Positions 2,817 through 60,141 of a stretch of 64,000 nt of DNA are shown piece by piece. A program made the translations under genes and the position numbers. The stretch is from Bacilli bacterium (lineage in GTDB: Bacteria > Bacillota_I > Bacilli_A > RF39 > UBA660): contig JAQWBL010000002.1 in NCBI GenBank assembly GCA_028706395.1, forward strand, positions 3,390 through 67,389, read 5' to 3'. Within the stretch, counting starts at the first letter, position 1. Each line of letters begins with the position of its first letter. The notes below the pieces were generated by a model, which saw only the letters and a list, made by a program, of their open reading frames with translations, had not been told where the DNA came from and ran no database searches.

Positions 2817-3698
2817 CTACTCCTTAATATTTATAATTTCTAAAATACGATTCAAATCAGCAGTATTATTAAAGTTGATAATTATTTTATTATCTTTTAT
2901 CTTAATTTTAGTATCCAGTTTTTCTCCTAATAAATCCTCAACGTATTTATAATTTTGTTTTTCTTCTGGAACACGACGGGCTATTTTAACTCGTCTTTCA
3001 AATTCCTCGCCTTCCGTGACTCGCTCTAATTCACGAACAGGAATTTGTTGATTTATAATTTTATGTGCTGTTTCAATTATTTGTGTTTGATTATCTAATT
3101 TACTTAAGATACGAGCATGCCCCATTGTTAATTGACTATTTACAATCATGTCTTGAACTTCTTGTGGTAAACGCAAAAGGCCTAGAATATTAGTGATATG
3201 ACTTCTACTTTTTCCAACCTTTTTAGATAATTCCTCGTGAGTTAAATTTAATTTATCTAGCATTTGTTGATAAGCATTTGCTTCTTCAATAGCACTTAAA
3301 TTTTCTCTTTGTAGATTTTCTAATAAAGCAATTTCCATCATTTGAACATCATTAAAATTTCTTACAATAGCTGGAATTGTCTCTAGTCCAGCTTTTTTAC
3401 TTGCTCGAACTCTTCGCTCACCAGCAATTATTTCATAACCTTTTATAGTCTTTTTTATTATAATTGGTTGAAAAACACCATGTTCTTTTATTGAAGACGC
3501 TAATTCATCAATAGCATTTTCATCAAAAACTTTACGCGGTTGATACGGATTCGGTCTTAATTCATTTAAATTAATTTCAATTATTTCTTCGCGATTAGCT
3601 GTTTCATATATTTTTTTTTCGACACTAGCGAGATCTAAATTTTCACTATTAAAAAGTTGCTCTAATCCCATACCTAGGGCTCTTTTTTTATTTTCCAT
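2817..3698 (-). CDS. parB: Chromosome partitioning protein ParB/Spo0J
   Basis: ParB N-domain IIAGERRVRASKKAGLETIPAIV; HTH with Spo0J-type residues (KSRSHITN, TMGHARIL). ATG at 3698 preferred over the TTG at 3707 because of GGAAGTG RBS spacing. Confidence 0.9.
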   Translation of the reverse strand: MENKKRALGMGLEQLFNSENLDLASVEKKIYETANREEIIEINLNELRPNPYQPRKVFDENAIDELASSIKEHGVFQPIIIKKTIKGYEIIAGERRVRASKKAGLETIPAIVRNFNDVQMMEIALLENLQRENLSAIEEANAYQQMLDKLNLTHEELSKKVGKSRSHITNILGLLRLPQEVQDMIVNSQLTMGHARILSKLDNQTQIIETAHKIINQQIPVRELERVTEGEEFERRVKIARRVPEEKQNYKYVEDLLGEKLDTKIKIKDNKIIINFNNTADLNRILEIINIKE

Positions 3699-4473
3699 TT
3701 CTTTCAATCACTTCCTTAGCTAAATTCAAATATGCTTCTGTTCCACGACTTTGTGGATCATAAGCTAGAATTGGTTTACCATGACTTGGTGCCTCTGATA
3801 AACGAACTAGTCTTGGAATTATTGTATCATATACACGTTCCTTAAAATAGCTTTTAATTTCTTCAACCACTTCAAGACCTAACTTAGTTCTACTATCTAA
3901 CATTGTAAGTAATACCCCTTCAATATCAAGGGTTGGATTTAAATTTTTCTGAGCAAGCATTATTGTATTTAATAGTTGCATAATTCCTTCTAAAGCAAAA
4001 AATTCACACTGAACAGGAATTATAACTGAATCACTAGCAGTTAATGCATTAGTTGTTAAAATTCCTAAAGATGGAGGACAATCAATAATTATATAATCAA
4101 ACATTTCTTTTGTTTCGTTTAAATATTTTTTTAATTGACCACCCTTAGCAAAACCTGGTTCTTGACGACTTTTATCCATTAATTCAATATCTACTCCAGC
4201 TAAGTTTATTGTAGCAGGAATTACATATAAATTTTTAAATTTTGTTTTTACAATTACTTCATTTAATGTCGCTTCATCAATTAATAAATCATATATACTT
4301 TTTTTGATATCTGCTTTATTTAAACCAATCCCTGTTGTTGTATTTCCTTGGGGATCTAAATCAACTAACAAAACTTTTTTTCTCAATATACCTAATGAGG
4401 CTGCTAAATTTATACTTGATGTTGTTTTTCCAACTCCACCTTTTTGATTAACTAGTGAAATTATCTTTCCCAT
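3688..4473 (-). CDS. parA: Chromosome partitioning ATPase ParA/Soj
   Basis: Deviant Walker A KGGVGKTT near the N-terminus; 261 aa; 3' end overlaps the parB start. Confidence 0.92.
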   Translation of the reverse strand: MGKIISLVNQKGGVGKTTSSINLAASLGILRKKVLLVDLDPQGNTTTGIGLNKADIKKSIYDLLIDEATLNEVIVKTKFKNLYVIPATINLAGVDIELMDKSRQEPGFAKGGQLKKYLNETKEMFDYIIIDCPPSLGILTTNALTASDSVIIPVQCEFFALEGIMQLLNTIMLAQKNLNPTLDIEGVLLTMLDSRTKLGLEVVEEIKSYFKERVYDTIIPRLVRLSEAPSHGKPILAYDPQSRGTEAYLNLAKEVIERNGK

Positions 4474-8866: not shown

Positions 8867-10366
8867 TTATTTAATTTTGCTTATTTTGAAAGTAATTTGA
8901 TAGTTATCACCAAAATCCACTTCGTCAACATCAATAAAGTAGCCAAGTTCCTCAATCTTTTTACCACAATTTCTAGCGTACATTATAACTTCTTGAAAAT
9001 TACCAGGATTATTTACAACACTACTAGAATCTAAATCATTAACTGATGGTATATTGTAATTTGGACCAAAAGTATCAACTTCTTCAACTACAACTTTAGG
9101 GTCTTCAATTACTTCTTCTGATGTTTCATCATCAAAATTAAAATTATAATCGGGTTGAATATTATCAAAATAGTTACTATTAGAAAACTCATTATTTTGG
9201 GTCGGTTTAACTTCATTTTCAACACTATAATTAATTTCAGGTTTCAAAGGTTCTTCAGTTATAACTGATTCATCAATTATATCTTCATCTTTAGATATTT
9301 GTGTTGGCACTACATCATCTAACTTAAAATCAAAATCATTAAACTTTCCATCATCATATTCAGCAGTTTCAAAGTTATTAACATCATTGTTAACAAAACT
9401 AAAGAATTTTCCCTGTGTCACTTGAGGTTCAACAATAGGATCATTTTGAATTGGATTTAAATCTGTAAATTGGTCGTCTGATTTCAACAAACTATCCAAA
9501 TCTGCCACTGGTTTTTCAACATGAATTTCTTCAGCATTTTTTTCGATTTTATCTATATCCAAAAAACCTGGTTTAAAATTAGTTTCTGGAATATCTTTTT
9601 TAGAAGCAGATATAGGAGTTGGTTGATTATCGATGTCTTCAAAATCATCAAAAATTTCTATATCTTCAATTATAGGTGCTGACGGCATGTTAAAAATATC
9701 CTTTTGAGATGTATTATTCATTTTAATTTCCTCATTTCGGTTTTCTTCAGGATTTTTTACAACATCCAAGATTTTATCAATTTCTTCATCAGTTCTTCTA
9801 ACAGTTAAACGCTCACTAATAATTCTATTCAACATTTCTTGTTGTTTTGTTTTATCAGATAATCTAAGCAAAGAACGAGCATGTCTTTCAGATATTTTAT
9901 TATCCAATAATGCATCTTGAACAGAATCATCTAAATTAAGTAATCTTAATTTATTAGAAATTGTTGATTGATTGCGATCAATTTTGTTTGCTAATGATTC
10001 CTGATTCAAATAACCCATATCTAATATTTTTTTATAAGATACAGCTTCTTCAATAGGGGTTAAGTCTTTTCTTTGAATATTCTCAATAAGCGCCACTTCA
10101 GCACTATCTTGATCATTTAAATTATTAATAATGGCTGGAATCGTTTCTAACCCTGCGACAGTGCTTGCTTTATATCTTCTTTCACCCGCAATTATTTCAT
10201 ATTTATCACCAATTTCCCTAACTAAAATTGGTTGAATTACACCATGTTCTTTTATAGAACCAGCCAATTCATTTATAGCTTTTTCATCAAATTTAATTCT
10301 CGGTTGAAATCTATTAGGTAATATATCATCCAAATTTAAATTTACAATCTTTTTATCGCTTTCCAC
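8867..10366 (-). CDS. noc: Noc-type ParB paralog (nucleoid occlusion-like) with a long acidic low-complexity insertion
   Basis: ParB N-domain (LPNRFQPR, IIAGERRYKAS). HTH carries Noc-type residues (NQSTISNKLRLL, ISERHARSLL) rather than Spo0J-type. Sits downstream of rsmG as in B. subtilis. GTG start with GGGAGG RBS. 499 aa because of a D/E/N-rich insert of about 240 aa. Confidence 0.7.
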   Translation of the reverse strand: MESDKKIVNLNLDDILPNRFQPRIKFDEKAINELAGSIKEHGVIQPILVREIGDKYEIIAGERRYKASTVAGLETIPAIINNLNDQDSAEVALIENIQRKDLTPIEEAVSYKKILDMGYLNQESLANKIDRNQSTISNKLRLLNLDDSVQDALLDNKISERHARSLLRLSDKTKQQEMLNRIISERLTVRRTDEEIDKILDVVKNPEENRNEEIKMNNTSQKDIFNMPSAPIIEDIEIFDDFEDIDNQPTPISASKKDIPETNFKPGFLDIDKIEKNAEEIHVEKPVADLDSLLKSDDQFTDLNPIQNDPIVEPQVTQGKFFSFVNNDVNNFETAEYDDGKFNDFDFKLDDVVPTQISKDEDIIDESVITEEPLKPEINYSVENEVKPTQNNEFSNSNYFDNIQPDYNFNFDDETSEEVIEDPKVVVEEVDTFGPNYNIPSVNDLDSSSVVNNPGNFQEVIMYARNCGKKIEELGYFIDVDEVDFGDNYQITFKISKIK

Positions 10367-19960: not shown

Positions 19961-19969
19961 AGAATGAAA

Positions 19970-21091
19970 ATGAATTTTGAAATCAATCAAAAAATATTGT
20001 TAAAACACTTAAATTATGTAATAAGAGGTATATCAAGTAAAAATTTAATTCCTATATTAAACTGTATAAAAATGGAATTAACTAATGAAGGATTATACTT
20101 GTTGAGTACTAATAATGATATAGCAATAAAAACTTTTATACCTAATAAACAAATAACAAAAGTTATAAACACAGGAGTTATTGTTGTATATGGTAGATAT
20201 ATATATGAAATAATAAGAAAACTACCTAATGAAACTATAACTATTGAAGAAGTGTTAGAAGATAAAATAAATATCTATACAAGTAAATCTTCATTTTATT
20301 TAAATTGTAATAAAACAGAGGATTTTCCAACACTAAATTTAGAAGAACAAGCTAATCCTATAAAGTTAAATAAAAAAGTATTAAAGAACTTAATTAATCA
20401 AACTATTTTTGCTACATCAAATGATGAAGCAAGACCTCATTTAACAGGATTAAATATTCAAGTAAAAGAAGATATATTAAAATGTACTGCAACAGATTCT
20501 TATAGATTATCATCAAAAGAAATAAAATTAGATGAAAAATTATCAACTGAAGTAAATATAATTATTCCTAATAAAAATATTCTTGAATTAAGTAAAATAA
20601 TTAACGATGATGATGATTTTATTGAATTACACATATTTAGTAATAGTATAATTTTTAAATTTTCAGATATTACTTTTATGTCAAGACTAATCAATGGAAC
20701 ATATCCAAATACATCAGCACTTATACCAAATGAATTTTCATTAAAATTAAAAGTTCAAAGAAATGATTTTTATAATTCAATTGATAGAGCTTCATTATTA
20801 ACAAACGAATTTGAAAAACACACTATAAAATTAGAATTAAAAGAAAATGAAGTAACAATTTCATCGAATATTCCAGAAATAGGGAAAGTTGAAGAAAAAA
20901 TATTAGTTGAAAAAAATAATGAAAATAATATTATTATATCTTTTTCTTCAAAATATATGCTTGATGCTCTAAAATCAATGGAAGATGAATTTATAGAAAT
21001 TTTATTCAATGGAGAATTGAAACCAATCATCATAAAGAACATAAATGACGAATCTTTAACACAATTGATTTTGCCTATAAGGACCTATTAA
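19970..21091 (+). CDS. dnaN: DNA polymerase III beta sliding clamp
   Basis: 373 aa with three-domain clamp pattern (ATDSYRL, MSRLINGTYPN). Second ATG chosen for AGGAGA spacing. Confidence 0.95.
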   Translation: MNFEINQKILLKHLNYVIRGISSKNLIPILNCIKMELTNEGLYLLSTNNDIAIKTFIPNKQITKVINTGVIVVYGRYIYEIIRKLPNETITIEEVLEDKINIYTSKSSFYLNCNKTEDFPTLNLEEQANPIKLNKKVLKNLINQTIFATSNDEARPHLTGLNIQVKEDILKCTATDSYRLSSKEIKLDEKLSTEVNIIIPNKNILELSKIINDDDDFIELHIFSNSIIFKFSDITFMSRLINGTYPNTSALIPNEFSLKLKVQRNDFYNSIDRASLLTNEFEKHTIKLELKENEVTISSNIPEIGKVEEKILVEKNNENNIIISFSSKYMLDALKSMEDEFIEILFNGELKPIIIKNINDESLTQLILPIRTY

Positions 21092-21098
21092 GTGTCTG

Positions 21099-21123
21099 AA
21101 ACAACTTTTTTAGTTGTTTTTTT
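21099..21123 (+). terminator. dnaN terminator
   Basis: AAACAACT/AGTTGTTT stem, 5-nt loop, T-run. Confidence 0.85.
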
Positions 21124-21135
21124 ATGCTCATTTTT

Positions 21136-21168
21136 GCATTTGAGACACATATTTGGGCATTTGGGACA
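21136..21168 (+). promoter_or_regulatory. LytTR/AgrA-type operator (two 12-nt direct repeats, 21-nt period) upstream of comK
   Basis: GCATTTGAGACA (21136-21147) and GCATTTGGGACA (21157-21168). The block 21131-21171 matches the reverse complement of 59645-59685 at 37/41 positions by hand alignment. -10-like TATATT (21191-21196) and TATGAT (21198-21203) lie downstream. Confidence 0.6.
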
Positions 21169-21255
21169 TAATCGCCCAAAAACATAAAAATATATTGTAT
21201 GATAGGAAGGAAATTCGATTTATATGTCGAATTATATTAGTAGGAGGTGAAATTA

Positions 21256-21705
21256 GTGGAAAAATATGAAATAAACTTATCAACTATTGCAATAATAGCA
21301 CTTGATAATCAAAAGAGTAAAATTATCGAAGATGATGGTAGTTTTATTGTAGATCGTGTAACCCCAAAAATTATTGATGATAGTTGTCGTTATTTTGGAA
21401 GTTCTTATTTAGGTAGATTTGAAGGTAGTAAAAACTTTTTAGGCGGAACTATTTACAAATCTCCCATAATAATTGAAGAGAGTAGAGAGATAATATTCTT
21501 TCCAACTGGATCAGCACGTTCATCTGAATGCTCATGGTTTTCATTGAACAAAGTTTCTCATTACGAAAAAGATAAAAATAATACTATTATTTACTTCAAA
21601 AATGGAACATCTTTAGAAGTTGATATCTCATATTCTTCATTTGAAAATCAAGTTTTGAGAGCTTCAAGACTTGAATCAATATTAAGACAGAGAAAAAACA
21701 AATAA
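21256..21705 (+). CDS. comK: Competence transcription factor ComK
   Basis: Aligns by eye to B. subtilis ComK blocks: YEIN.STIAI, SKIIEDD, DDSCRYFGSSYLGR, IIFFPTGS, ISYSSFENQVLRASRL. GTG at 21256 lies 8 nt after AGGAGG. Confidence 0.88.
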   Translation: MEKYEINLSTIAIIALDNQKSKIIEDDGSFIVDRVTPKIIDDSCRYFGSSYLGRFEGSKNFLGGTIYKSPIIIEESREIIFFPTGSARSSECSWFSLNKVSHYEKDKNNTIIYFKNGTSLEVDISYSSFENQVLRASRLESILRQRKNK

Positions 21706-27414: not shown

Positions 27415-27474
27415 TAGAAACATCAATATTAAACAAGGTTGCTTTTTTTATTAAAATATTATATTATTTTAACT

Positions 27475-27551
27475 GACACAACATATATAATCGAACCAGG
27501 TCAGAATTGGAAAATAGCAGCCTTAAGATTCCCTTTATGTGTGTGTCTTTT
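27475..27551 (+). ncRNA. ffs: Small (4.5S-type) SRP RNA
   Basis: Domain IV signature CCAGGTCAGAATTGGAAAATAGCAGCC with GGAA tetraloop (27509-12). Termini pair (GACACAACATA / TATGTGTGTGTC). TTGCTT-17-TATTAT promoter at 27439-27467; T-run follows. Confidence 0.75.
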
Positions 27552-27579
27552 TTTATGTTATTATATAAAGGGGTGTATT

Positions 27580-39873: not shown

Positions 39874-40407
39874 ATGAAAAGTATAGGTATTGTTAGAAGA
39901 ATTGACGAAATGGGTAGAATTGTTATTCCAAAAGAAATAAGGAAAACATTACGAATAAATAATAATGATAATATTGAAATTTATATAGAGGGTGAAGATA
40001 AGATAATTCTAAAAAAATATTCGTTAATGAAAAATATAAATGATTTTGCGCAAAAGTTTGTTGATTCAATGCATAGTTTCATAAAAAACAATATTATTAT
40101 AACCGATACTAAAGATATTATAGCTGTTGCTGGACTAAATAAAAAAGATTACTTAAATAAACCAATTAGTGAAAAATTAGAAACTTCGATTATGAGAAGA
40201 GAAAATATATTAGAAAAATATTCTAAGGAATATGAAATAATTAATGGCCAAAAGGAAATAGGAACTTATGCAATTAGTACGATAATTGCAAATGGTGATG
40301 CTATTGGTTTAGTTATTATGACTTCGAATGATGAGGAATTAAATCATACTGATGAAAAAATTGTTAAGATAGCTTCACAGTTTTTAGGAAAATATCTTGA
40401 ACAATAG
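39874..40407 (+). CDS. spoVT: AbrB-family regulator SpoVT
   Basis: SpoVT/AbrB swapped-hairpin N-terminus (GIVRRIDEMGRIVIPKEIRKTLRI) plus a GAF-like C-domain; 177 aa; follows mfd as in B. subtilis. Confidence 0.85.
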   Translation: MKSIGIVRRIDEMGRIVIPKEIRKTLRINNNDNIEIYIEGEDKIILKKYSLMKNINDFAQKFVDSMHSFIKNNIIITDTKDIIAVAGLNKKDYLNKPISEKLETSIMRRENILEKYSKEYEIINGQKEIGTYAISTIIANGDAIGLVIMTSNDEELNHTDEKIVKIASQFLGKYLEQ

Positions 40408-40439: not shown

Positions 40440-40657
40440 TTTAAAGATGTTGAAGGAAATAAAAATACTGTCGTTTCTATAGAGACTTTGCGCACCGGTG
40501 AAAGCAAAGGTAACAATGTATTTTAAATGGTTCTGGAATCGCTTAGTCGATATGTAGGCTAAGCCGTTAGTACGCGTTAATACTTTGAGTGTATAGTTTT
40601 TATAAATTAAGGTGGTACCGCGTCATCACGTCCTTAAACAGGGTGTGATTTTTTTAT
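40440..40657 (+). promoter_or_regulatory. T-box riboswitch leader, Met (AUG) specifier
   Basis: Stem I elements: AGAGA, GGTGAAAG distal region. Specifier loop AA-ATG-G at 40525-40530, F-box CCGTTA, T-box AATTAAGGTGGTACCGCG (40605-40622). Terminator ATCACGTCCT/AGGGTGTGAT plus T7 (40625-40656). Confidence 0.85.
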
Positions 40658-52474: not shown

Positions 52475-52551
52475 GGGTGATTAGCTCAGTTGGTTAGAGC
52501 ACCTGCCTTACAAGCAGGGGGTCGTAGGTTCGAGTCCTACATTGCCCACCA
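52475..52551 (+). tRNA. tRNA-Val (anticodon UAC)
   Basis: Cloverleaf folded by hand; anticodon loop CTTACAA; CCA encoded. Confidence 0.93.
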
Positions 52552-52552
52552 T

Positions 52553-52629
<77 letters not shown>

Positions 52630-52631
52630 TT

Positions 52632-52715
52632 GGAGGGATAGCGAAGTGGCCAAACGCGGCAGACTGTAAATCTGTTCCTTCGGGTTCGATGGTTCAAATC
52701 CATCTCCCTCCACCA
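52632..52715 (+). tRNA. tRNA-Tyr (GUA)
   Basis: Long variable arm; anticodon loop CTGTAAA; CCA encoded. Confidence 0.92.
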
Positions 52716-52731
52716 TTTATGTTGGTTATGT

Positions 52732-52806
52732 TGCCTCGTAGCCAAGCGGTAAGGCACCACACTTTGACTGTGGCATGCGCTAGTTCGAATCTAGCCGAGG
52801 CAGCCA
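52732..52806 (+). tRNA. tRNA-Gln (UUG)
   Basis: Anticodon stem CCACA/TGTGG, loop CTTTGAC; CCA encoded. Confidence 0.9.
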
Positions 52807-52818
52807 TTTTTATTTTAT

Positions 52819-52894
52819 GTCCCGTTAGCTCAGTAGGTAGAGCATTTGACTTTTAATCAAAGGGTCACAAGTTCGAATCTTGTACGGGACACCA
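52819..52894 (+). tRNA. tRNA-Lys (UUU)
   Basis: Anticodon loop CTTTTAA; CCA encoded. Confidence 0.93.
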
Positions 52895-52903
52895 TTCGTT
52901 TTT

Positions 52904-52992
52904 GCCTGAGTGGCGGAATAGGTAGACGCACAGGACTTAAAATCCTGCGAGACTCAACTCTCGTGCCGGTTCAATTCCGGCCTTAGGCACCA
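52904..52992 (+). tRNA. tRNA-Leu (UAA)
   Basis: Long variable arm; anticodon loop CTTAAAA; CCA encoded. Confidence 0.92.
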
Positions 52993-53023
52993 TTTTAATT
53001 TTTTTGTAATTTATATAAAATAT

Positions 53024-53114
53024 GGAGAAATACCCAAGTCTGGTTGAAGGGACTGGTCTTGAAAACCAGCAGGTCGGAAACGGCGCGGGGGTTCGAATCC
53101 CTCTTTCTCCGCCA
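53024..53114 (+). tRNA. tRNA-Ser (UGA)
   Basis: Long variable arm; anticodon loop CTTGAAA; CCA encoded. Confidence 0.92.
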
Positions 53115-53133
53115 ATTTTATTTAAATTAATAT

Positions 53134-53210
<77 letters not shown>

Positions 53211-53213
53211 TAT

Positions 53214-53289
53214 GGTCCCGTGGTGTAGCGGTTATCACGTCTGCCTGTCACGCAGAAGATCGCGAGTTCGATTCTCGTCGGGACCGCCA
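53214..53289 (+). tRNA. tRNA-Asp (GUC)
   Basis: Anticodon loop CTGTCAC; CCA encoded. Confidence 0.93.
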
Positions 53290-53292
53290 TTT

Positions 53293-53368
<76 letters not shown>

Positions 53369-53387
53369 TTTAAATATTAATGATCTT

Positions 53388-53464
53388 GCGCCCGTAGATC
53401 AATTGGATAGATCGTTTGACTACGGATCAAAAGGTTATGGGTTCGACTCCTATCGGGCGCGCCA
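53388..53464 (+). tRNA. tRNA-Arg (ACG)
   Basis: Anticodon stem TTTGA/TCAAA, loop CTACGGA; CCA encoded. Confidence 0.92.
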
Positions 53465-53467
53465 TAT

Positions 53468-53544
53468 CGGGAAATAGCACAACTTGGTAGTGCACTTGGT
53501 TTGGGACCAAGGGGTTGCAGGTTCAAATCCTGTTTTCCCGACCA
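53468..53544 (+). tRNA. tRNA-Pro (UGG)
   Basis: Anticodon stem CTTGG/CCAAG, loop TTTGGGA; CCA encoded. Confidence 0.92.
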
Positions 53545-55005: not shown

Positions 55006-55082
55006 GGGGAATTAGCTCAGTTGGCTAGAGCACCTGCCTTGCACGCAGGGGGTCAAGGGTTCGAGTCCCTTATTCTCCACCA
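55006..55082 (+). tRNA. tRNA-Ala (UGC)
   Basis: G3-U70 identity pair; anticodon loop CTTGCAC; CCA encoded. Confidence 0.93.
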
Positions 55083-55115
55083 TTAGAAATTAATCTCGAG
55101 TAATCGAGTATAACG

Positions 55116-55139
55116 AATCAACCATTGGTTGATTTTTTT
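55116..55139 (+). terminator. tRNA-Ala terminator
   Basis: ATCAACC/GGTTGAT hairpin followed by T7. Confidence 0.8.
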
Positions 55140-55184
55140 AATTTATTAAAGCAAAATGTGTTAAAATAATGCTAGGTGAGATTT

Positions 55185-55802
55185 ATGAGTAAAATATCAA
55201 ACGTTTTAACTATGCTAGAACTTTTAAGTAATAACCGTAAATATTCGATTAATGAATTAGCGTCTATATTAGAAGTTAGTAATAGAATGGTTAGATCATA
55301 TAAGCAAGAATTAGAAAAAGCTGGTATTTATATTGATACAATTAGAGGTCCCTATGGTGGTTATATTCTAAGTACCAATATTATTCTGCCAAAACGGGGT
55401 TTTAGTAAATATGATATTTTATTATTAAATGATATACATGATATATTAAAAAATCAAAAAGGCTTTGAATTTAATAAAGAGTATTTAGAATTGATCAATA
55501 AAGTTAATGGAATTTACAAAAGCAGTAAAAAGAAAACCGATATTATTAATCTAGATGAAGTTAATAGTAATGATAAATATAATTTGTTTTTGAAAGCCGT
55601 TCGTGAAAAACGGAAAATGTGGATTAAGTTTTTATCGCTTGATAAGAGTGCTTCTGAAAGGATAATCCATCCATGTAATTTATTTAAATATAATGATGAG
55701 TGGTATGTTTCTGCTTTTTGTGAGTTAAGAAGTGAAATTAGACATTTCTCGTTACGCCGAATTGTTGATTTTAAGTTATTAGATGAAAGTTATAAGAAAT
55801 AG
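55185..55802 (+). CDS. HTH plus WYL-domain transcriptional regulator (short YafY-like)
   Basis: N-terminal wHTH (YSINELASILEVSNRMVRSYKQELEKAGIYI). C-terminal WYL-like segment (IHPCNLFKYNDEWYVSAFCELRSEIRHFSLRRI). ATG at 55185. Confidence 0.7.
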   Translation: MSKISNVLTMLELLSNNRKYSINELASILEVSNRMVRSYKQELEKAGIYIDTIRGPYGGYILSTNIILPKRGFSKYDILLLNDIHDILKNQKGFEFNKEYLELINKVNGIYKSSKKKTDIINLDEVNSNDKYNLFLKAVREKRKMWIKFLSLDKSASERIIHPCNLFKYNDEWYVSAFCELRSEIRHFSLRRIVDFKLLDESYKK

Positions 55803-55859
55803 TTAATGCGACCATATATTTCCTCTTTAAGTGCTAGAATAGTTTTATGGAGGTATTTT

Positions 55860-56426
55860 ATGGAAAAAATTGTGTTTGTTACAAGTAATGAGGGAAAAGT
55901 AAAAACAGCTCAGTCCTACTTGACTAATATTGAATTAATATACTATAAATATGATTTAATTGAACCCCGTAGTGAGTCATTAGAGGAAATAGCGAAGTAT
56001 AAAGTGTTACAAGCTTATAAACAAGTCAAAACCGATTGTATCGCGCTTGATAGTGGCTTTTATATTGAAGGATTAGATGGTTGGCCTGGAACTTTTGTGA
56101 ACTTTAATTTAAAAAAACTGGGATTAGAAGGAATAATAAAATTACTTAAAAATGTGGAATGTCGAAAAGCACATTTTCTAGAGTGTTTGGCATATTATGA
56201 TGGTAAAGAGGTTAAATATTTTTACGGTTTGTCTAAAGGAACTATTTCGCCTGAAATAAGCCAAGTTGGCAGCGAATATCAATGGTCAAATTTGTGGAAA
56301 ATATTTATTCCTGACAATCATAATAAAACATTATCAGATATGAGTGATGAAGAAAGAAAAAATAGAAAAGATGATCATACTTCGTCTTTTGTTGAGTTTA
56401 ATAATTATATAAACAAAAAAGATTAG
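55860..56426 (+). CDS. Ham1/ITPase-family non-canonical NTP pyrophosphatase-like protein
   Basis: FVTSNEGK N-terminus, DSGFYIEGLDGWPG and a late KT..+MS.EE segment, as in the ITPA/RdgB family. ATG at 55860 after GGAGGT. Confidence 0.65.
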   Translation: MEKIVFVTSNEGKVKTAQSYLTNIELIYYKYDLIEPRSESLEEIAKYKVLQAYKQVKTDCIALDSGFYIEGLDGWPGTFVNFNLKKLGLEGIIKLLKNVECRKAHFLECLAYYDGKEVKYFYGLSKGTISPEISQVGSEYQWSNLWKIFIPDNHNKTLSDMSDEERKNRKDDHTSSFVEFNNYINKKD

Positions 56427-56513
56427 TAAAAGAATGCTGAATATAGTTTAATCCACATTCAATATCGAAATATATGAATAACCTATTATAGAAATATAAA
56501 AGGGGGGAACAAA

Positions 56514-56666
56514 ATGGGACCTTGGGGATATCCTGGTAGCTGTTGTCCGTCAATGCCTTGCTATGGCGGAGGGTATGGTGGAAGTGGTATAGGAATAATT
56601 TGGATTATTATTATAATATTTGTTATTTTCGCACTTTTTAATCATTCACGTCGTGATTGTATATAA
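56514..56666 (+). CDS. Tiny Gly/Tyr/Cys-rich single-TM protein (YjcZ-like), not in ORF track
   Basis: Hand translation gives MGPWGYPGSCCPSMPCYGGGYGGSGIGIIWIIIIIFVIFALFNHSRRDCI (50 aa). AAGGGGGG RBS 7 nt upstream; strong terminator immediately downstream. Confidence 0.65.
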   Translation: MGPWGYPGSCCPSMPCYGGGYGGSGIGIIWIIIIIFVIFALFNHSRRDCI

Positions 56667-56683
56667 TTGCGTTAAAATATATT

Positions 56684-56716
56684 AGAAATTAGATATTTTG
56701 TCTAATTTCTTTTTTA
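56684..56716 (+). terminator. Terminator after the tiny TM ORF
   Basis: AGAAATTAGA/TCTAATTTCT 10-bp stem followed by T5. Confidence 0.85.
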
Positions 56717-56758
56717 AATTAATAAATATTATTCGAAATAAAAATTATTTTTTTAATA

Positions 56759-56787
56759 TTGCAATTTTTGGCATTATATGGTAATAT
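56759..56787 (+). promoter_or_regulatory. Sigma-A-type promoter of the response regulator/kinase operon
   Basis: TTGCAA, 17 nt, TAATAT. No direct-repeat operator is seen here. Confidence 0.6.
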
Positions 56788-56833: not shown

Positions 56834-57541
56834 ATGGTTAATTTTGTTGTGTGTGATGACAATGCAGAAATTTTAAGTCAAATTAATTCTATTATAGATG
56901 AGGAAATGATTAAAAATAAAATGAAATATCAATGTCATTTGTTTGATGATTACGATAATAAGTTTATGAAATTGATGCGTTCAAAGTTACCTTTTAGAAT
57001 ATATATATTGGATATTGAGACTCCAACTTCATCAGGAATAGATATAGCGAGAGTAATTAGAAAGATTGATGTTGAAAGTGTTATTATTTTTTTAACGTCG
57101 CACGATGAATTAGGGTACACTGTTTTAAAAAACGAATTTTTATTTTTGTCATTTATAAATAAATATGATGATTATCCAAAACATTTAAGTAAAGCAATTG
57201 AAAAAGCTTTGGATGTTCTAGGTAAAAAACAAGTAATTCGTTTTGACGATAGAGGTGCTGTATATACTATACCTATTAATGATATATTGTATATAACAAG
57301 AGATAGTATTGAACGAAAAGTCGTTATTACTACTGATTATTCACAATTTAGTGTAAACAAAACACTAATGGATATGTCTGAAATGTTAGGTGATGTTTTT
57401 ATACAATCACATCGTTCATGTATTATAAATTCTACTAGAGTGTCAATCGTTAATTTACCAAAGAAAAAAATAATTTTTGATACTGGAGTTGAGATAGATT
57501 GGCTGAGTCCAAAGTATAAAAAAGAGGTATCACAATTATGA
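56834..57541 (+). CDS. agrA: LytTR-family response regulator (AgrA-like)
   Basis: Receiver domain (VVCDDN, ILDIETP) plus C-terminal LytTR domain (ILYITRDSIERKVVITT, FIQSHRSCIINSTRV). ATG at 56834 lies 7 nt after GAGGTG. Confidence 0.85.
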   Translation: MVNFVVCDDNAEILSQINSIIDEEMIKNKMKYQCHLFDDYDNKFMKLMRSKLPFRIYILDIETPTSSGIDIARVIRKIDVESVIIFLTSHDELGYTVLKNEFLFLSFINKYDDYPKHLSKAIEKALDVLGKKQVIRFDDRGAVYTIPINDILYITRDSIERKVVITTDYSQFSVNKTLMDMSEMLGDVFIQSHRSCIINSTRVSIVNLPKKKIIFDTGVEIDWLSPKYKKEVSQL

Positions 57542-58830
57542 TTTTTTTATTAAGTAGTTTTGTAGTCTCACTTGCATGTTTTTATGTATCATCTAGAATT
57601 TTTAAAGAAAAAATTAATTTTAAGGAATTAAGGTTTTGGCTAGTTGTTATTATTAACACTATTCTGATGACATTATTATTTATAGCAACTAAACACTATA
57701 TTCGTGTTTTAATTAACTATATAGTATTGGTTGTTTTAAATAAAATATATTTTAAGAAAAAAATTGTTAATGTAATTATTGGGAGTTTTTTTGTATTTGT
57801 TTTAATTACTGTTTCTGAAATAATGGTTGCAATCATATTAGTTACATTATTAAAAATTGAACCAGCTGAGTTATCAGAAGCTTTTCTTGGCCATTTCTGG
57901 CTTAATTTATTTATTGCATCAATGATGATTATATTTATAAATATAAAAAAGGTTGTTCATTTTTTTGGAAGTGTGGCTGAAAATAGAAAGAGTCAAGGTG
58001 TCTTTGAAATTCTTCCTGTGTTAGCTCTTATTGTTTTGATCTATTCAGTTTTCTTTTACTATATGTATTTCAAACTTGATGTTTTATTAGCAATGATTTT
58101 AAGTGTTATTTTGATAATAATTATTACCTTTTTGGTAATAAATATAAGTTTGGAAAAAAATTATCATAGTAATTTAAAAAAAGAATATAACAAGTTAATT
58201 AATGATTTGACGGAATATGAAAAGATTCTTGAAAAATACCGAAGAACCAATCATGAAAATAAAAACAATTTTATTGTTTTAAAAGGAATGATTCCTGAAA
58301 AAAACAAGGATATTATTAATCATATTGATGAGATTATTAATTTAAAAGAAAAAGATGATGATGAAATTTTAACTAAAACAAAACGACTTCCTTCTGGTGG
58401 ATTTCAAGGATTAATTTATCAGAAGATGCTAATTATGAAAGAAAAAGGTATTAGTTGCAATTTAGAAATAAGCAAAGATATTTATTCTAATAGTTATAAA
58501 AAATTTGATTTTGAACTTAATAAAAATTTATGTGCAATAGCTGGTATTATCATTGATAATGCTATTGAAGCGGTCGAAGATTTAAAAACAAAAGCAATTG
58601 GTATTTACCTATATAAAGATGGAAAAGATTTTTATTTTTGTATTTCCAATAATTTCCAAGGTCCAATTGATTTAGAAAGAATGGACGAGGAAGGATATTC
58701 TAGTAAAGGTAAAGGTCGCGGGTATGGTCTTAGTTTGGTTAAAAGAATTGTTGATAAAGATGAGAGACTTTCAATTGAAAGGGAATTTGTTAGGGATATT
58801 TTTAAACAAAAAATCAAAATAAAAATGTAG
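57538..58830 (+). CDS. agrC: AgrC-like (HPK10) sensor histidine kinase
   Basis: About 6 N-terminal TM helices; H-box-like RRTNHENKNNF; GHKL N-box (IIIDNAIEA) and G-box (GKGRGYGLSLV). ATGA overlap with the regulator gene. Confidence 0.85.
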   Translation: MIFLLSSFVVSLACFYVSSRIFKEKINFKELRFWLVVIINTILMTLLFIATKHYIRVLINYIVLVVLNKIYFKKKIVNVIIGSFFVFVLITVSEIMVAIILVTLLKIEPAELSEAFLGHFWLNLFIASMMIIFINIKKVVHFFGSVAENRKSQGVFEILPVLALIVLIYSVFFYYMYFKLDVLLAMILSVILIIIITFLVINISLEKNYHSNLKKEYNKLINDLTEYEKILEKYRRTNHENKNNFIVLKGMIPEKNKDIINHIDEIINLKEKDDDEILTKTKRLPSGGFQGLIYQKMLIMKEKGISCNLEISKDIYSNSYKKFDFELNKNLCAIAGIIIDNAIEAVEDLKTKAIGIYLYKDGKDFYFCISNNFQGPIDLERMDEEGYSSKGKGRGYGLSLVKRIVDKDERLSIEREFVRDIFKQKIKIKM

Positions 58831-58855: not shown

Positions 58856-58978
58856 TTATTTTATTAAGAAATCAGGTGTTTCAGGTTCGTCTAACCATAG
58901 AAACATACAAGCGGTTGTGAATGTGTTAGCAGCAACATAAGCGAGTGTACTTAAAGTTAAAGCTAAAATTTTAATCAC
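58856..58978 (-). CDS. agrD: AgrD-like autoinducing peptide precursor (40 aa, not in ORF track)
   Basis: Hand translation gives M(GTG)IKILALTLSTLAYVAANTFTTACMFLWLDEPETPDFLIK. It has an amphipathic leader, a single Cys followed by hydrophobic residues, and an acidic DEPETP tail. AGGAGG lies 6 nt upstream; the start overlaps the agrB stop (GTGATTAA). Confidence 0.75.
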   Translation of the reverse strand: MIKILALTLSTLAYVAANTFTTACMFLWLDEPETPDFLIK

Positions 58979-59594
58979 AAACGTCCTCCTTTCTTTTTTT
59001 ATATTGCAAGTAATTATTATAATGCTGATTAAAAATAATATATGCCCAAGGTGTTATTAAGAAAGATTGAATAACTAATGAAAATAATAAAGCATTTGCG
59101 ATAAAATGGTTGTTTGTAAAAATTATAATATAACTATAAATTATGGAGGTAACAGTTGATATAATTTTATAATAATTTCTTCTTTTTGTGTTAATAATTG
59201 GTCTTTTTTTAGTATCAGCAGGTGAATATTTATAAAAAACTAAGATTGAAATTATGACCGAAATTAATTTAATTTTCAAACCAATAGCTATTATTGTACA
59301 TAAATAAGTTGTTCCAATAAATAGAACTGTTGATGCAATTAAACAGATTATACCATTGGTAGCATGGAGTCCGAATGAAAACATTCTTAATAAATTATAA
59401 AACAACATTAAAATTATCAGTTCTATAAATAAATTTAAATATATAGCGATTGCAAATATTATGATGGTTTTGGTGATTGTTATATATATTCCTTCCAATC
59501 CATATCTTATAGTTGCTATTTGTTTTTCCGTGTAGTTTGGATAATGTTTTGTAATAAAGTTTAATAAAATATTTAAAACTTGATTTTTCAACAA
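58971..59594 (-). CDS. agrB: AgrB-family AIP-processing membrane endopeptidase
   Basis: Polytopic. LRMFSFGLHATNGIIC has His and Cys 7 residues apart, as for the catalytic H77/C84 of S. aureus AgrB. Also SPADTKKRPI motif. TTG start 6 nt after GAGGTG. Confidence 0.85.
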   Translation of the reverse strand: MLKNQVLNILLNFITKHYPNYTEKQIATIRYGLEGIYITITKTIIIFAIAIYLNLFIELIILMLFYNLLRMFSFGLHATNGIICLIASTVLFIGTTYLCTIIAIGLKIKLISVIISILVFYKYSPADTKKRPIINTKRRNYYKIISTVTSIIYSYIIIFTNNHFIANALLFSLVIQSFLITPWAYIIFNQHYNNYLQYKKRKEDVCD

Positions 59595-59647
59595 ATATCA
59601 CACCTCGGTTAAATTATATCATATAAAACAGTGTTTGTAATGATTTA

Positions 59648-59680
59648 TGTCCGAAATGGCCGAATATGTGTCTCAAACGC
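59648..59680 (-). promoter_or_regulatory. LytTR-type operator B1 facing agrBD
   Basis: On the minus strand, GCGTTTGAGACA (59669-59680) and CCATTTCGGACA (59648-59659), period 21 nt. -10-like TATATG/TATAAT (59613-59625) lies between the operator and the agrB start. Confidence 0.65.
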
Positions 59681-59711
59681 AAAAAATGGCATAAATAAAA
59701 CCTCCAAAAAT

Positions 59712-59744
59712 GCATTTTGAACGCATAAGTGGGCATTTCGGACA
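59712..59744 (+). promoter_or_regulatory. LytTR-type operator B2 facing rightward (toward csp)
   Basis: GCATTTTGAACG (59712-59723) and GCATTTCGGACA (59733-59744), period 21 nt. TAAAAT at 59774-59779 is at the same offset as the -10-like hexamers of the other two copies. Confidence 0.55.
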
Positions 59745-59864
59745 TTTGATATTTAAAAAAATTAAAAAACGAGTAAAATAATTTTTGTCGGGATCTTTTG
59801 ATTATATAAAAAATATTTTTCCGCAATAGTTAAAAAAATGTCGGAATTTGACTTCCCCATTTTA

Positions 59865-59893
59865 TTGATTATTGAATATATAGAGGGTATATT
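59865..59893 (+). promoter_or_regulatory. Sigma-A-type promoter proximal to csp
   Basis: TTGATT, 17 nt, TATATT. Confidence 0.65.
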
Positions 59894-59928: not shown

Positions 59929-60141
59929 GTGAGAGGTAAAGTTAAATGGTTTAATAACGATAAAGGCTTTGGATTTATTGAACACAATGATGAAGAAGAT
60001 ATCTTTGTTCATTATTCTGCAATCTTATCATCAGGCTACAAAACCTTAGTTGAAGGTCAATATGTTGAGTTTGAATTGGTAAGAACAGACAAGGGCTTAC
60101 AAGCAAAAAATGTTATTGAAATTAAAACTGCACTTGTTTAG
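59929..60141 (+). CDS. Cold-shock protein (CspA family)
   Basis: RNP1 KGFGFI and RNP2-like VFVHYS motifs; 70 aa. GTG start 6 nt after GGGAGAGG. Confidence 0.93.

Follow-up and report, generated by a model that had tools for sequence, protein, structure and literature searches.

A predicted LytTR-type operator shared by comK and an Agr-type locus in uncultured Bacilli

Firmicutes are known to couple competence to peptide quorum sensing in two well-established ways: in streptococci, the LytTR regulator ComE acts on comX, and in Bacillus, ComA acts together with ComS, which stabilises ComK. ComA of B. subtilis is not a LytTR protein; it activates srfA/comS, and ComS in turn frees ComK from MecA/ClpCP. 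Agr input into competence is unsettled even in S. aureus, in which the link is indirect and disputed: deletion of agrCA lowered PcomG expression in biofilm (PMC9072672), whereas deletion of agrA was without effect under microaerobic conditions (PMC10182052). Here, we analyse 64,000 nt of contig JAQWBL010000002.1 from an uncultured Bacilli bacterium (hereafter, the window), in which a 33-bp element of paired direct repeats lies directly upstream of comK and similar pairs occur twice at an Agr-type locus. This locus predicts a third, hybrid route, in which Agr-type signal production and a ComE-like operator would be combined with direct transcriptional control of comK.

The DNA sites of LytTR regulators are imperfect direct repeats of approximately 9 bp that are 12-13 bp apart and lie upstream of the -35 region (PMC5600425, PMC2766830). 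Described operators have cores of 9-10 bp separated by 11-13 bp, i.e., a period of approximately 21 bp (PMC2766830, PMC5600425, PMC6560143), and the half-site consensus is [TA][AC][CA]GTTN[AG][TG] (PMC5600425). For pneumococcal ComE, the motif is [TNYWVTTBRGR]-N11-[ACADTTGAGR]-N42 followed by the transcription start site (TSS), which is reached after 42-44 nt (PMC6560143). The putative comK element has the architecture of such operators, with direct repeats of 21-bp period just upstream of the -35 position. At the level of sequence, the half-sites of the window agree with the LytTR consensus at 5-6 of 8 specified positions, and the comK site has the N11 gap and 17 of 20 specified positions of the ComE motif, a consensus foreign to this host; chance alone would give that level of match approximately three times in the window.

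Among known systems, S. pneumoniae ComCDE, with ComE boxes at comCDE, comAB, and comX, is similar in that the LytTR regulator of a peptide-pheromone two-component system directly activates its own signal operon and a competence master gene, such activation being predicted in the present case. ComE boxes are likewise imperfect direct repeats (boxes of 10-11 nt, N11 gap) located approximately 42-44 nt before the TSS (PMC6560143), which is a predicted position here. However, the signal in the window would be an AgrD/AgrB cyclic peptide, whereas ComAB exports a linear double-glycine competence-stimulating peptide (CSP). The predicted control falls on a transcription factor, ComK, in place of the sigma factor ComX, and the regulator-kinase genes are not under the operator; moreover, the similarity of the regulator to ComE is remote (E=3.9e-6). 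With S. aureus agr, the locus shares AgrB, AgrD, an AgrC-like kinase, and an AgrA-like LytTR regulator, as well as a P2/P3-like layout of divergent promoters in which a direct-repeat pair precedes a weak -35 and one promoter drives agrBD (PMC5600425). Unlike in S. aureus, the regulator-kinase operon stands apart from agrBD, is oriented convergently to it, and is predicted to be constitutive; the gene in front of the divergent promoter is csp, with no conserved RNAIII-like RNA; and the half-site is CATTTnRGACA rather than ACAGTTAAG. As in the ComQXPA-ComA-ComS-MecA/ClpCP pathway of B. subtilis, peptide quorum sensing is predicted ultimately to raise ComK activity; unlike that indirect, post-translational route, the predicted one runs straight from the quorum-sensing regulator to the comK promoter.

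Paired repeats at three promoters

The two 12-nt repeats upstream of comK agree at 11 of 12 positions at a lag of 21 nt (Table 1). Two further pairs flank the agrBD operon and give the locus a divergent promoter layout of the P2/P3 type. The 21-nt period is found at all three sites, and all three have the same layout of 12, 9, and 12 nt followed by exactly 29 nt to a -10 hexamer; in addition, the block 21131-21171 is identical to the reverse complement of 59645-59685 at exactly 37 of 41 positions. An earlier, sequence-only reading of this DNA had reported two of these sites. Both are real, and its coordinates for the direct repeats between the dnaN terminator and comK (21136-21147 and 21157-21168) as well as its hand-aligned count of 37/41 proved exact. 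The -10-like hexamers that it had noticed are also real and equidistant (TATGAT at 21198-21203 and TATAAT at 59618-59613, each 29 nt from the proximal repeat), and profile searches agree with the flanking genes that it had named (dnaN, ComK, the LytTR regulator, and agrBD). It had, however, missed the third pair and an inverted half-site near the comK pair.

With up to 3 mismatches allowed, the degenerate pair pattern of that reading matched three places in the window and was absent from all of 100 dinucleotide-preserving shuffles, whereas a single half-site alone was not significant (12 matches in the window vs. 8.6 expected). With a paired position weight matrix, the three sites score 32.7-37.6 bits, the next best position in the window scores 12.5 bits, and the null maxima have a mean of 12.3 and a maximum of 17.6 bits; the matrix includes the window's own three sites, yet the margin is large nonetheless.

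Table 1. Positions of the elements and genes discussed, counted from the first nucleotide of the window
Feature	Position	Strand	Remarks
dnaN	19964-21091	+	
Inverted half-site TTGTTTCAGACA	21093-21104	-	directly after the dnaN stop, 31 nt upstream of the comK pair
dnaN intrinsic terminator	21099-21123	+	AT-rich hairpin AAACAACT/AGTTGTTT, then T-run
comK operator (predicted)	21136-21168	+	distal GCATTTGAGACA (21136-21147), 9-nt spacer, proximal GCATTTGGGACA (21157-21168)
comK -10 hexamer (predicted)	21198-21203	+	TATGAT, 29 nt from the operator
Palindrome AATTCGA-N8-TCGAATT	21212-21233	+	in the predicted comK 5' leader
comK	21256-21705	+	149 aa, GTG start, ribosome-binding site AGGAGGTG at 21242-21249
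Regulator-kinase promoter, sigma-A type	56759-56787	+	near-consensus TTGCAA, 17 nt, TAATAT
LytTR response regulator, AgrA/ComE-like	56834-57541	+	receiver and LytTR domains; Pfam LytTR 5.6e-13, Response_reg
AgrC-like GHKL membrane histidine kinase	57538-58830	+	HATPase_c_5 5.6e-12
agrD	58856-58978	-	40-aa predicted autoinducing-peptide precursor, ...TTACMFLW/LDEPETPDFLIK
agrB	58971-59594	-	AgrD-processing membrane protease; PF04647, 105 bits vs. cut-off 23, E=3.8e-30
agrBD -10	59613-59618	-	TATAAT (TG-extended), from promoter scan; ATTACA at the -35 position
agrBD operator (predicted)	59648-59680	-	GCGTTTGAGACA-N9-CCATTTCGGACA; P2-like autoregulatory site
Third operator (predicted)	59712-59744	+	GCATTTTGAACG-N9-GCATTTCGGACA; divergent from agrBD, P3-like, towards csp-hpf
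Divergent promoter -10	59774-59779	+	TAAAAT, from promoter scan; 29 nt from the third operator
csp's own promoter	59865-59893	+	TTGATT-17-TATATT; kept in all relatives, variable spacer
csp, cold-shock-domain protein	59929-60141	+	Pfam CSD 1.3e-26
Origin-region genes rnpA, yidC, jag, mnmE, mnmG, rsmG, noc/parAB		-	
Origin-region genes dnaA, dnaN, comK, recF, gyrB, gyrA, dnaX, recR, mfd, spoVT		+	

At comK, the -35 position is occupied by CCCAAA, a poor match that leaves no usable -35, and GTATnATA at the -10 is kept in all relatives. The predicted TSS lies at approximately 21210, which would place the operator approximately 43-44 nt upstream of it. The terminator after dnaN insulates comK from dnaN read-through; relatives retain a hairpin and T-run after dnaN with differing stem sequences, and a consensus terminator scan misses the element because its stem has fewer than three G-C pairs. 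The gene itself encodes a full-length member of the ComK family (PF06338, 146 bits vs. cut-off 22.3, E=7.3e-43), in which residues 5-150 align to profile positions 2-151 of 152. More than 600 homologues were found; all named ones are called ComK, and they are annotated to metagenome-assembled genomes of uncultured 'Mollicutes bacterium' or 'Bacilli bacterium'. In every relative examined, comK fills the dnaN-recF slot of the origin-proximal dnaA-gyrB cluster, which in B. subtilis is occupied by yaaA/rlbA.

The comK pair is accompanied by a half-site in inverted orientation, which overlaps the 5' arm of the dnaN terminator and scores 9.2 bits. It lies 31 nt from the pair, a spacing also found in the agr intergenic region, where it separates the two distal half-sites, and the similarity between the comK and agrB upstream regions continues for approximately 20 nt past the repeats. 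The comK control region thus mirrors one half of the divergently arranged agr control region. This points to a duplication, to more than one regulator dimer being bound, or to a combination of the two.

The predicted comK leader also contains a perfect palindrome, found once in the window against 0.04 occurrences expected. Its sequence is kept in five of seven lineages, among them L023, which lacks a detectable operator. The palindrome may be the operator of a second regulator or a 5' stem-loop. A conserved RNA hairpin was considered and rejected, as RNAalifold gave no consensus structure for the comK leader and single-sequence z-scores were weak (-2.1 to +0.5).

Distribution and conservation of the sites

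A pattern that fits all three window sites was used to scan 185,579 GTDB species-representative genomes as well as JGI metagenomes. The genome collection did not contain the window's own species, which the pattern would have matched. Nine stretches were matched in the GTDB set, three of which lie on a single contig of a sister species ('Bacilli bacterium SO_2017_LW2_38', approximately 88% nucleotide identity to the window), one upstream of comK and two as the divergent pair at agrB/csp. The other six are located in unrelated genomes, whose GC range is given as 32-60% or 32-68%, and approximate the number expected by chance. The metagenome scan returned the same three sister-species sites on the same contig, plus chance matches. 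At the stringency of the scan, the sister assembly carries the motif at only three promoters. A dispersed repeat, which the sequence-only reading had listed among the outcomes that would overturn its proposal, or a mobile element is thereby discarded: the window holds three sites, and the scans return only their three orthologues in the sister species and chance matches. Upstream of comK, the half-site pair is kept in position in six lineages (the window, L017, L002, L003, L036, and L005), with ComK identity down to 74%.

Each of the pairs in these six lineages has a 9-nt spacer and is located 28-29 nt from the conserved -10. Between the window and the sister species, the comK half-sites are identical at 23 of 24 positions and the spacers at 5 of 9; such conservation of half-sites over a drifting spacer fits selection on the half-sites. 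The inverted half-site, with a gap of 30-31 nt, is kept in all six operator-bearing lineages; by eye, neither L023 nor L025 showed an equivalent. At the agr loci, the agrBD operator is kept in six further loci and the third operator in L009, L007, L011, L037, and L026. The clade half-site consensus is [G/C]CATTTn[A/G][G/A]ACA, in which the C at position 11 is invariant in 26 half-sites.

In six lineages, comK and agr loci could be paired within one genome. L017/L018, L023/L024, and L025/L026 each share a contig; L002 was paired with L007 on the basis of an identical regulator protein that is also recorded on a contig equal in length (161,759 bp) to the one carrying L002; and L003/L011 and L036/L037 were paired by adjacent accession series or the same whole-genome shotgun project. 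A matrix built only from agr sites of other genomes finds the comK operator where it is expected in the window, L017, L002, and L003 (p<=0.003 vs. shuffles), and scores the window operator at 21.5 bits (p<0.004 vs. shuffles). In L005, the expected comK site is probably the second-best match (16.2 bits), the best being the inverted half-site. Lineage-specific variants are also shared by the comK and agr loci of a genome, e.g., ...GGACA in the window vs. ...AAGCA/GAGCA in L002/L007, and the spacer TTAAAAG is found at two of the three L002/L007 sites. A strict co-variation of spacer length between comK and agr was rejected, since agreement is only within 1 nt (in the sister species, 31 at comK and 30 at agr).

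The proposed circuit and its alternatives

The 33-bp element upstream of comK (21136-21168) probably serves as an operator at which the AgrA/ComE-like LytTR regulator encoded at 56834-57541 would bind and activate comK. In the circuit that we propose, the regulator and the AgrC-like kinase would be made constitutively from their own sigma-A promoter, and AgrB would process AgrD into a cyclic autoinducing peptide (Cys+4, CMFLW). At a high peptide concentration, the kinase would phosphorylate the regulator, a dimer of which would bind the two direct repeats, centred at approximately -48 and -69 (span approximately -42 to -74) from the predicted TSS, and recruit RNA polymerase to promoters with a weak -35. 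Three promoters would respond: that of agrBD, providing positive feedback, the divergent promoter towards csp, and that of comK; ComK would then presumably turn on DNA-uptake genes. That two of the three sites flank the agrBD operon is the classic arrangement of a locus under autoregulation. The sequence-only reading had proposed that the AgrA-like regulator activates comK as well as agrBD. As far as sequence analysis reaches, this proposal is supported by the architecture of the sites, their restriction to three promoters, and their conservation, with the correction that the comK link is undetectable in two deeper relatives; binding and activation themselves are predictions. Its remark that no direct Agr-to-ComK circuit had been described agrees with the literature searched, in which no AgrA-type site at any comK promoter was found.

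Several observations weigh against this assignment. The conserved G of the GTT core of LytTR sites is a T in the half-sites of the window. The pneumococcal ComE consensus at three mismatches gives 3 matches against 3.1 expected in the AT-rich window, which is not significant; as an independent detector it was dropped, and it is kept as a resemblance only. The regulator was assigned by proximity and by the autoregulation paradigm, with a search for LytTR genes that covered the 64-kb window. No late competence (com) genes were found in the annotated parts of the window (1-40407 and the agr region; open reading frames (ORFs) between 40612 and 54117 were unscanned). In addition, the comK operator is not detectable in the deeper relatives L023 (ComK identity 70%, p=0.19) and L025 (58%, p=0.38), which limits the comK link to a sub-clade. 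The agr-only matrix, however, also fails on L024's own agr sites (p=0.70), and because it misses these, motif drift limits what the negatives in L023 and L025 can say. The comK link may thus be specific to a sub-clade, or the motif may have drifted beyond detection. Within this context, the comK promoter of L023 is near-consensus (TTGCAA-17-TGaTATTAA, in the dnaN-comK spacer L023 1325-1500, CAZVQX010000001.1), whereas the operator-bearing comK promoters, that of the window and the five others alike, have poor -35 regions. An operator with a poor -35 on the one hand and a good -35 without an operator on the other is what an activator-dependent and a constitutive promoter, respectively, would look like. 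The agr locus of L023 (L024) is intact, and the lineage looks like a case of loss or non-acquisition of the quorum-sensing input.

The element might be bound by a different protein. This could be ComK, which would then autoregulate and have agrBD and csp under its control as well, or a further LytTR regulator whose gene lies elsewhere; in either case, the AgrA-like regulator would not control comK. The search for LytTR genes covered 64 kb of the genome, which leaves room for such a protein, and in B. subtilis, ComK acts as an autoregulator at the comK promoter (PMC3297582). Direct repeats with a 21-bp period, however, fit LytTR and ComE patterns (PMC5600425, PMC6560143). Moreover, two of the three sites lie in agr's own control region, beside the only LytTR gene seen, and the agr-region sites of L023/L024 keep their position while the comK site is undetectable. 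Known ComK boxes have the form AAAA-N5-TTTT, which the sites do not fit. We regard a different binder as unlikely. A similarly low probability is given to the idea that the regulator does bind and yet represses or modulates comK, or that the ComK homologue governs something besides DNA uptake, so that no competence would be induced. The sign of regulation and the ComK regulon are assumptions of the proposed circuit, comK here sits in the dnaA-gyrB cluster, and S. aureus competence genes serve functions other than transformation (PMC8938553). Nonetheless, the comK site has the same geometry as the agrBD promoter, presumed to be self-activated, and this geometry together with the weak -35 points to activation; it also lies as far from the predicted TSS as the sites of promoters activated by ComE lie from theirs (PMC6560143). 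The full-length, high-scoring match of the protein to the ComK family argues against another function.

That the comK copy is a relic without function, left by duplication of part of the agr control region or resembling it by chance, is very improbable. A duplication is suggested by the similarity that extends approximately 20 nt beyond the repeats of comK and agrB and by the copied geometry of the inverted half-site. However, the site is kept in six lineages with 74-88% ComK identity, its half-sites are conserved above the spacer and flanks, and its distance to the conserved -10 is fixed. Chance is opposed by the absence of any pair in 100 shuffles, and one would not expect a relic to follow the half-site variants of the agr locus in each genome.

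Control of comK by the AgrA-like regulator can be placed in a broader scenario, which is plausible but which we hold with somewhat less than even confidence. An Agr-type cyclic thiolactone would be the competence pheromone of uncultured, sporulation-gene-bearing, low-GC Bacilli of anaerobic digesters, acting through a regulon of three promoters (agrBD, comK, and the csp side), and half of the agr region (inverted half-site, pair, and -10) would have been copied into the dnaN-comK spacer to form the control region of comK. If true, this would represent an independent reinvention of the streptococcal ComE-to-comX logic from Agr parts and ComK, and a regulon rewired via promoter duplication. What would be new is the ComE-on-comX logic built from an Agr-type signal module and ComK in part of an uncultured clade. 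Because the predicted regulon is very small, it is easy to test. Confirmation would indicate repeated evolution, from different parts, of quorum-sensing control over a competence master regulator, and would allow the onset of transformability in an uncultured digester lineage to be predicted from sequence; what looks like a copy of the agr control region upstream of comK would then illustrate how a gene is recruited into a regulon.

The Agr-type locus and the surrounding region

The genes of the locus make up a complete Agr-type system, with AgrB, AgrD, an AgrC-like kinase, and a LytTR regulator. The best NCBIfam name of the regulator is AgrA, at a score far below the equivalog cut-off, and its best match in the Protein Data Bank is ComE (4CBV, E=3.9e-6); tblastn found no paralogue in the window, of which it is the sole LytTR gene. 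The kinase aligns end-to-end to the AgrC model with 63.5 bits, below the equivalog cut-off. By these scores, the two proteins are Agr-like rather than orthologues of staphylococcal AgrA/AgrC. A paired-matrix scan of the window found no paired motif at the regulator-kinase promoter, and expression of the sensor pair is predicted to be constitutive because this promoter is without an operator. There is no single agrBDCA operon under P2, as agrBD on the minus strand converges with the regulator-kinase operon on the plus strand, and this split arrangement is kept in all relatives.

AgrD matches TIGR04223 (23.9 bits vs. cut-off 19) and contains a Cys plus four predicted ring residues (CMFLW) followed by LDEPETP; the Cys+4 arrangement and the DEPxxP motif are kept in seven lineages. 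The predicted ring CMFLW is identical in the window, the sister species, and the L007 lineage, and the others have CMFFW, CVFFW, CIILW, or CMIWY. Peptide cross-talk among the three lineages with the same predicted ring is possible.

The gene downstream of the divergent promoter is likely csp. No consensus terminator was found between the two, and csp also has its own promoter, upstream of which a near-palindromic element, TGTCGGAATTTGAC at 59839-59852, is kept in all relatives. Conservation among lineages is lacking in the approximately 60 nt after the divergent -10, where a single ORF starting with ATG (15 aa), likewise unconserved, has no ribosome-binding site. An RNAIII-like RNA or a small peptide downstream of the third operator was rejected on these grounds, and read-through from the divergent promoter into csp appears more likely. 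The cold-shock protein, and perhaps the hibernation factor too, may thus be expressed more strongly in response to quorum sensing.

Just upstream of the regulator gene, a 50-aa ORF (56514-56666, plus strand) encodes a Gly/Cys-rich product with a hydrophobic tail (MGPWGYPGSCCPSMPCYGGGYGGSG...IIIIIFVIFALF). It has its own terminator (56684-56715), matches no family, and is also kept in L009 (4699-4863) of the sister species. On the same side of the locus, BLAST aligned nothing from the sister species (L009) to 55224-56150 and nothing from L007/L011 to 55094-56776. Both stretches fall between a tRNA gene (55006-55079) and the agr locus and cover much of an ORF for a WYL-domain regulator (55176-55802) and of a Ham1-family ORF (55806-56426). 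The region 55224-56150 is a lineage-specific indel beside the agr locus.

The window has a GC content of 27.5% and covers the replication-origin region of a Firmicutes chromosome (Table 1). Gene order is kept in every relative fetched, both for dnaA-dnaN-comK-recF-gyrB and for regulator-kinase/agrD-agrB/csp-hpf-secA. An Rfam scan of the whole window found no RNA family at the comK or agr site, and reading the repeats as an RNA element was dropped on this basis. The scan returned ordinary matches elsewhere, namely a small SRP RNA (27465-27562), a T-box leader (40441-40638), a 12-tRNA cluster (52475-53541), and the isolated tRNA at 55006-55079. A 499-aa ParB-like protein (8867-10366, minus strand) has ParB_N and HTH_ParB domains in its first 200 residues and a long uncharacterised C-terminal half; it is distinct from the ParB homologue at 2817-3707, which adjoins a ParA-type ATPase. 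Finally, sporulation-related SpoVT, YutH-like, and CotZ-like genes (window 39874-40407; L007 1876-2781; L026 3336-3785) occur in genomes labelled 'Mollicutes bacterium', and the lineage is probably a spore-forming group of Bacilli rather than a true mollicute.

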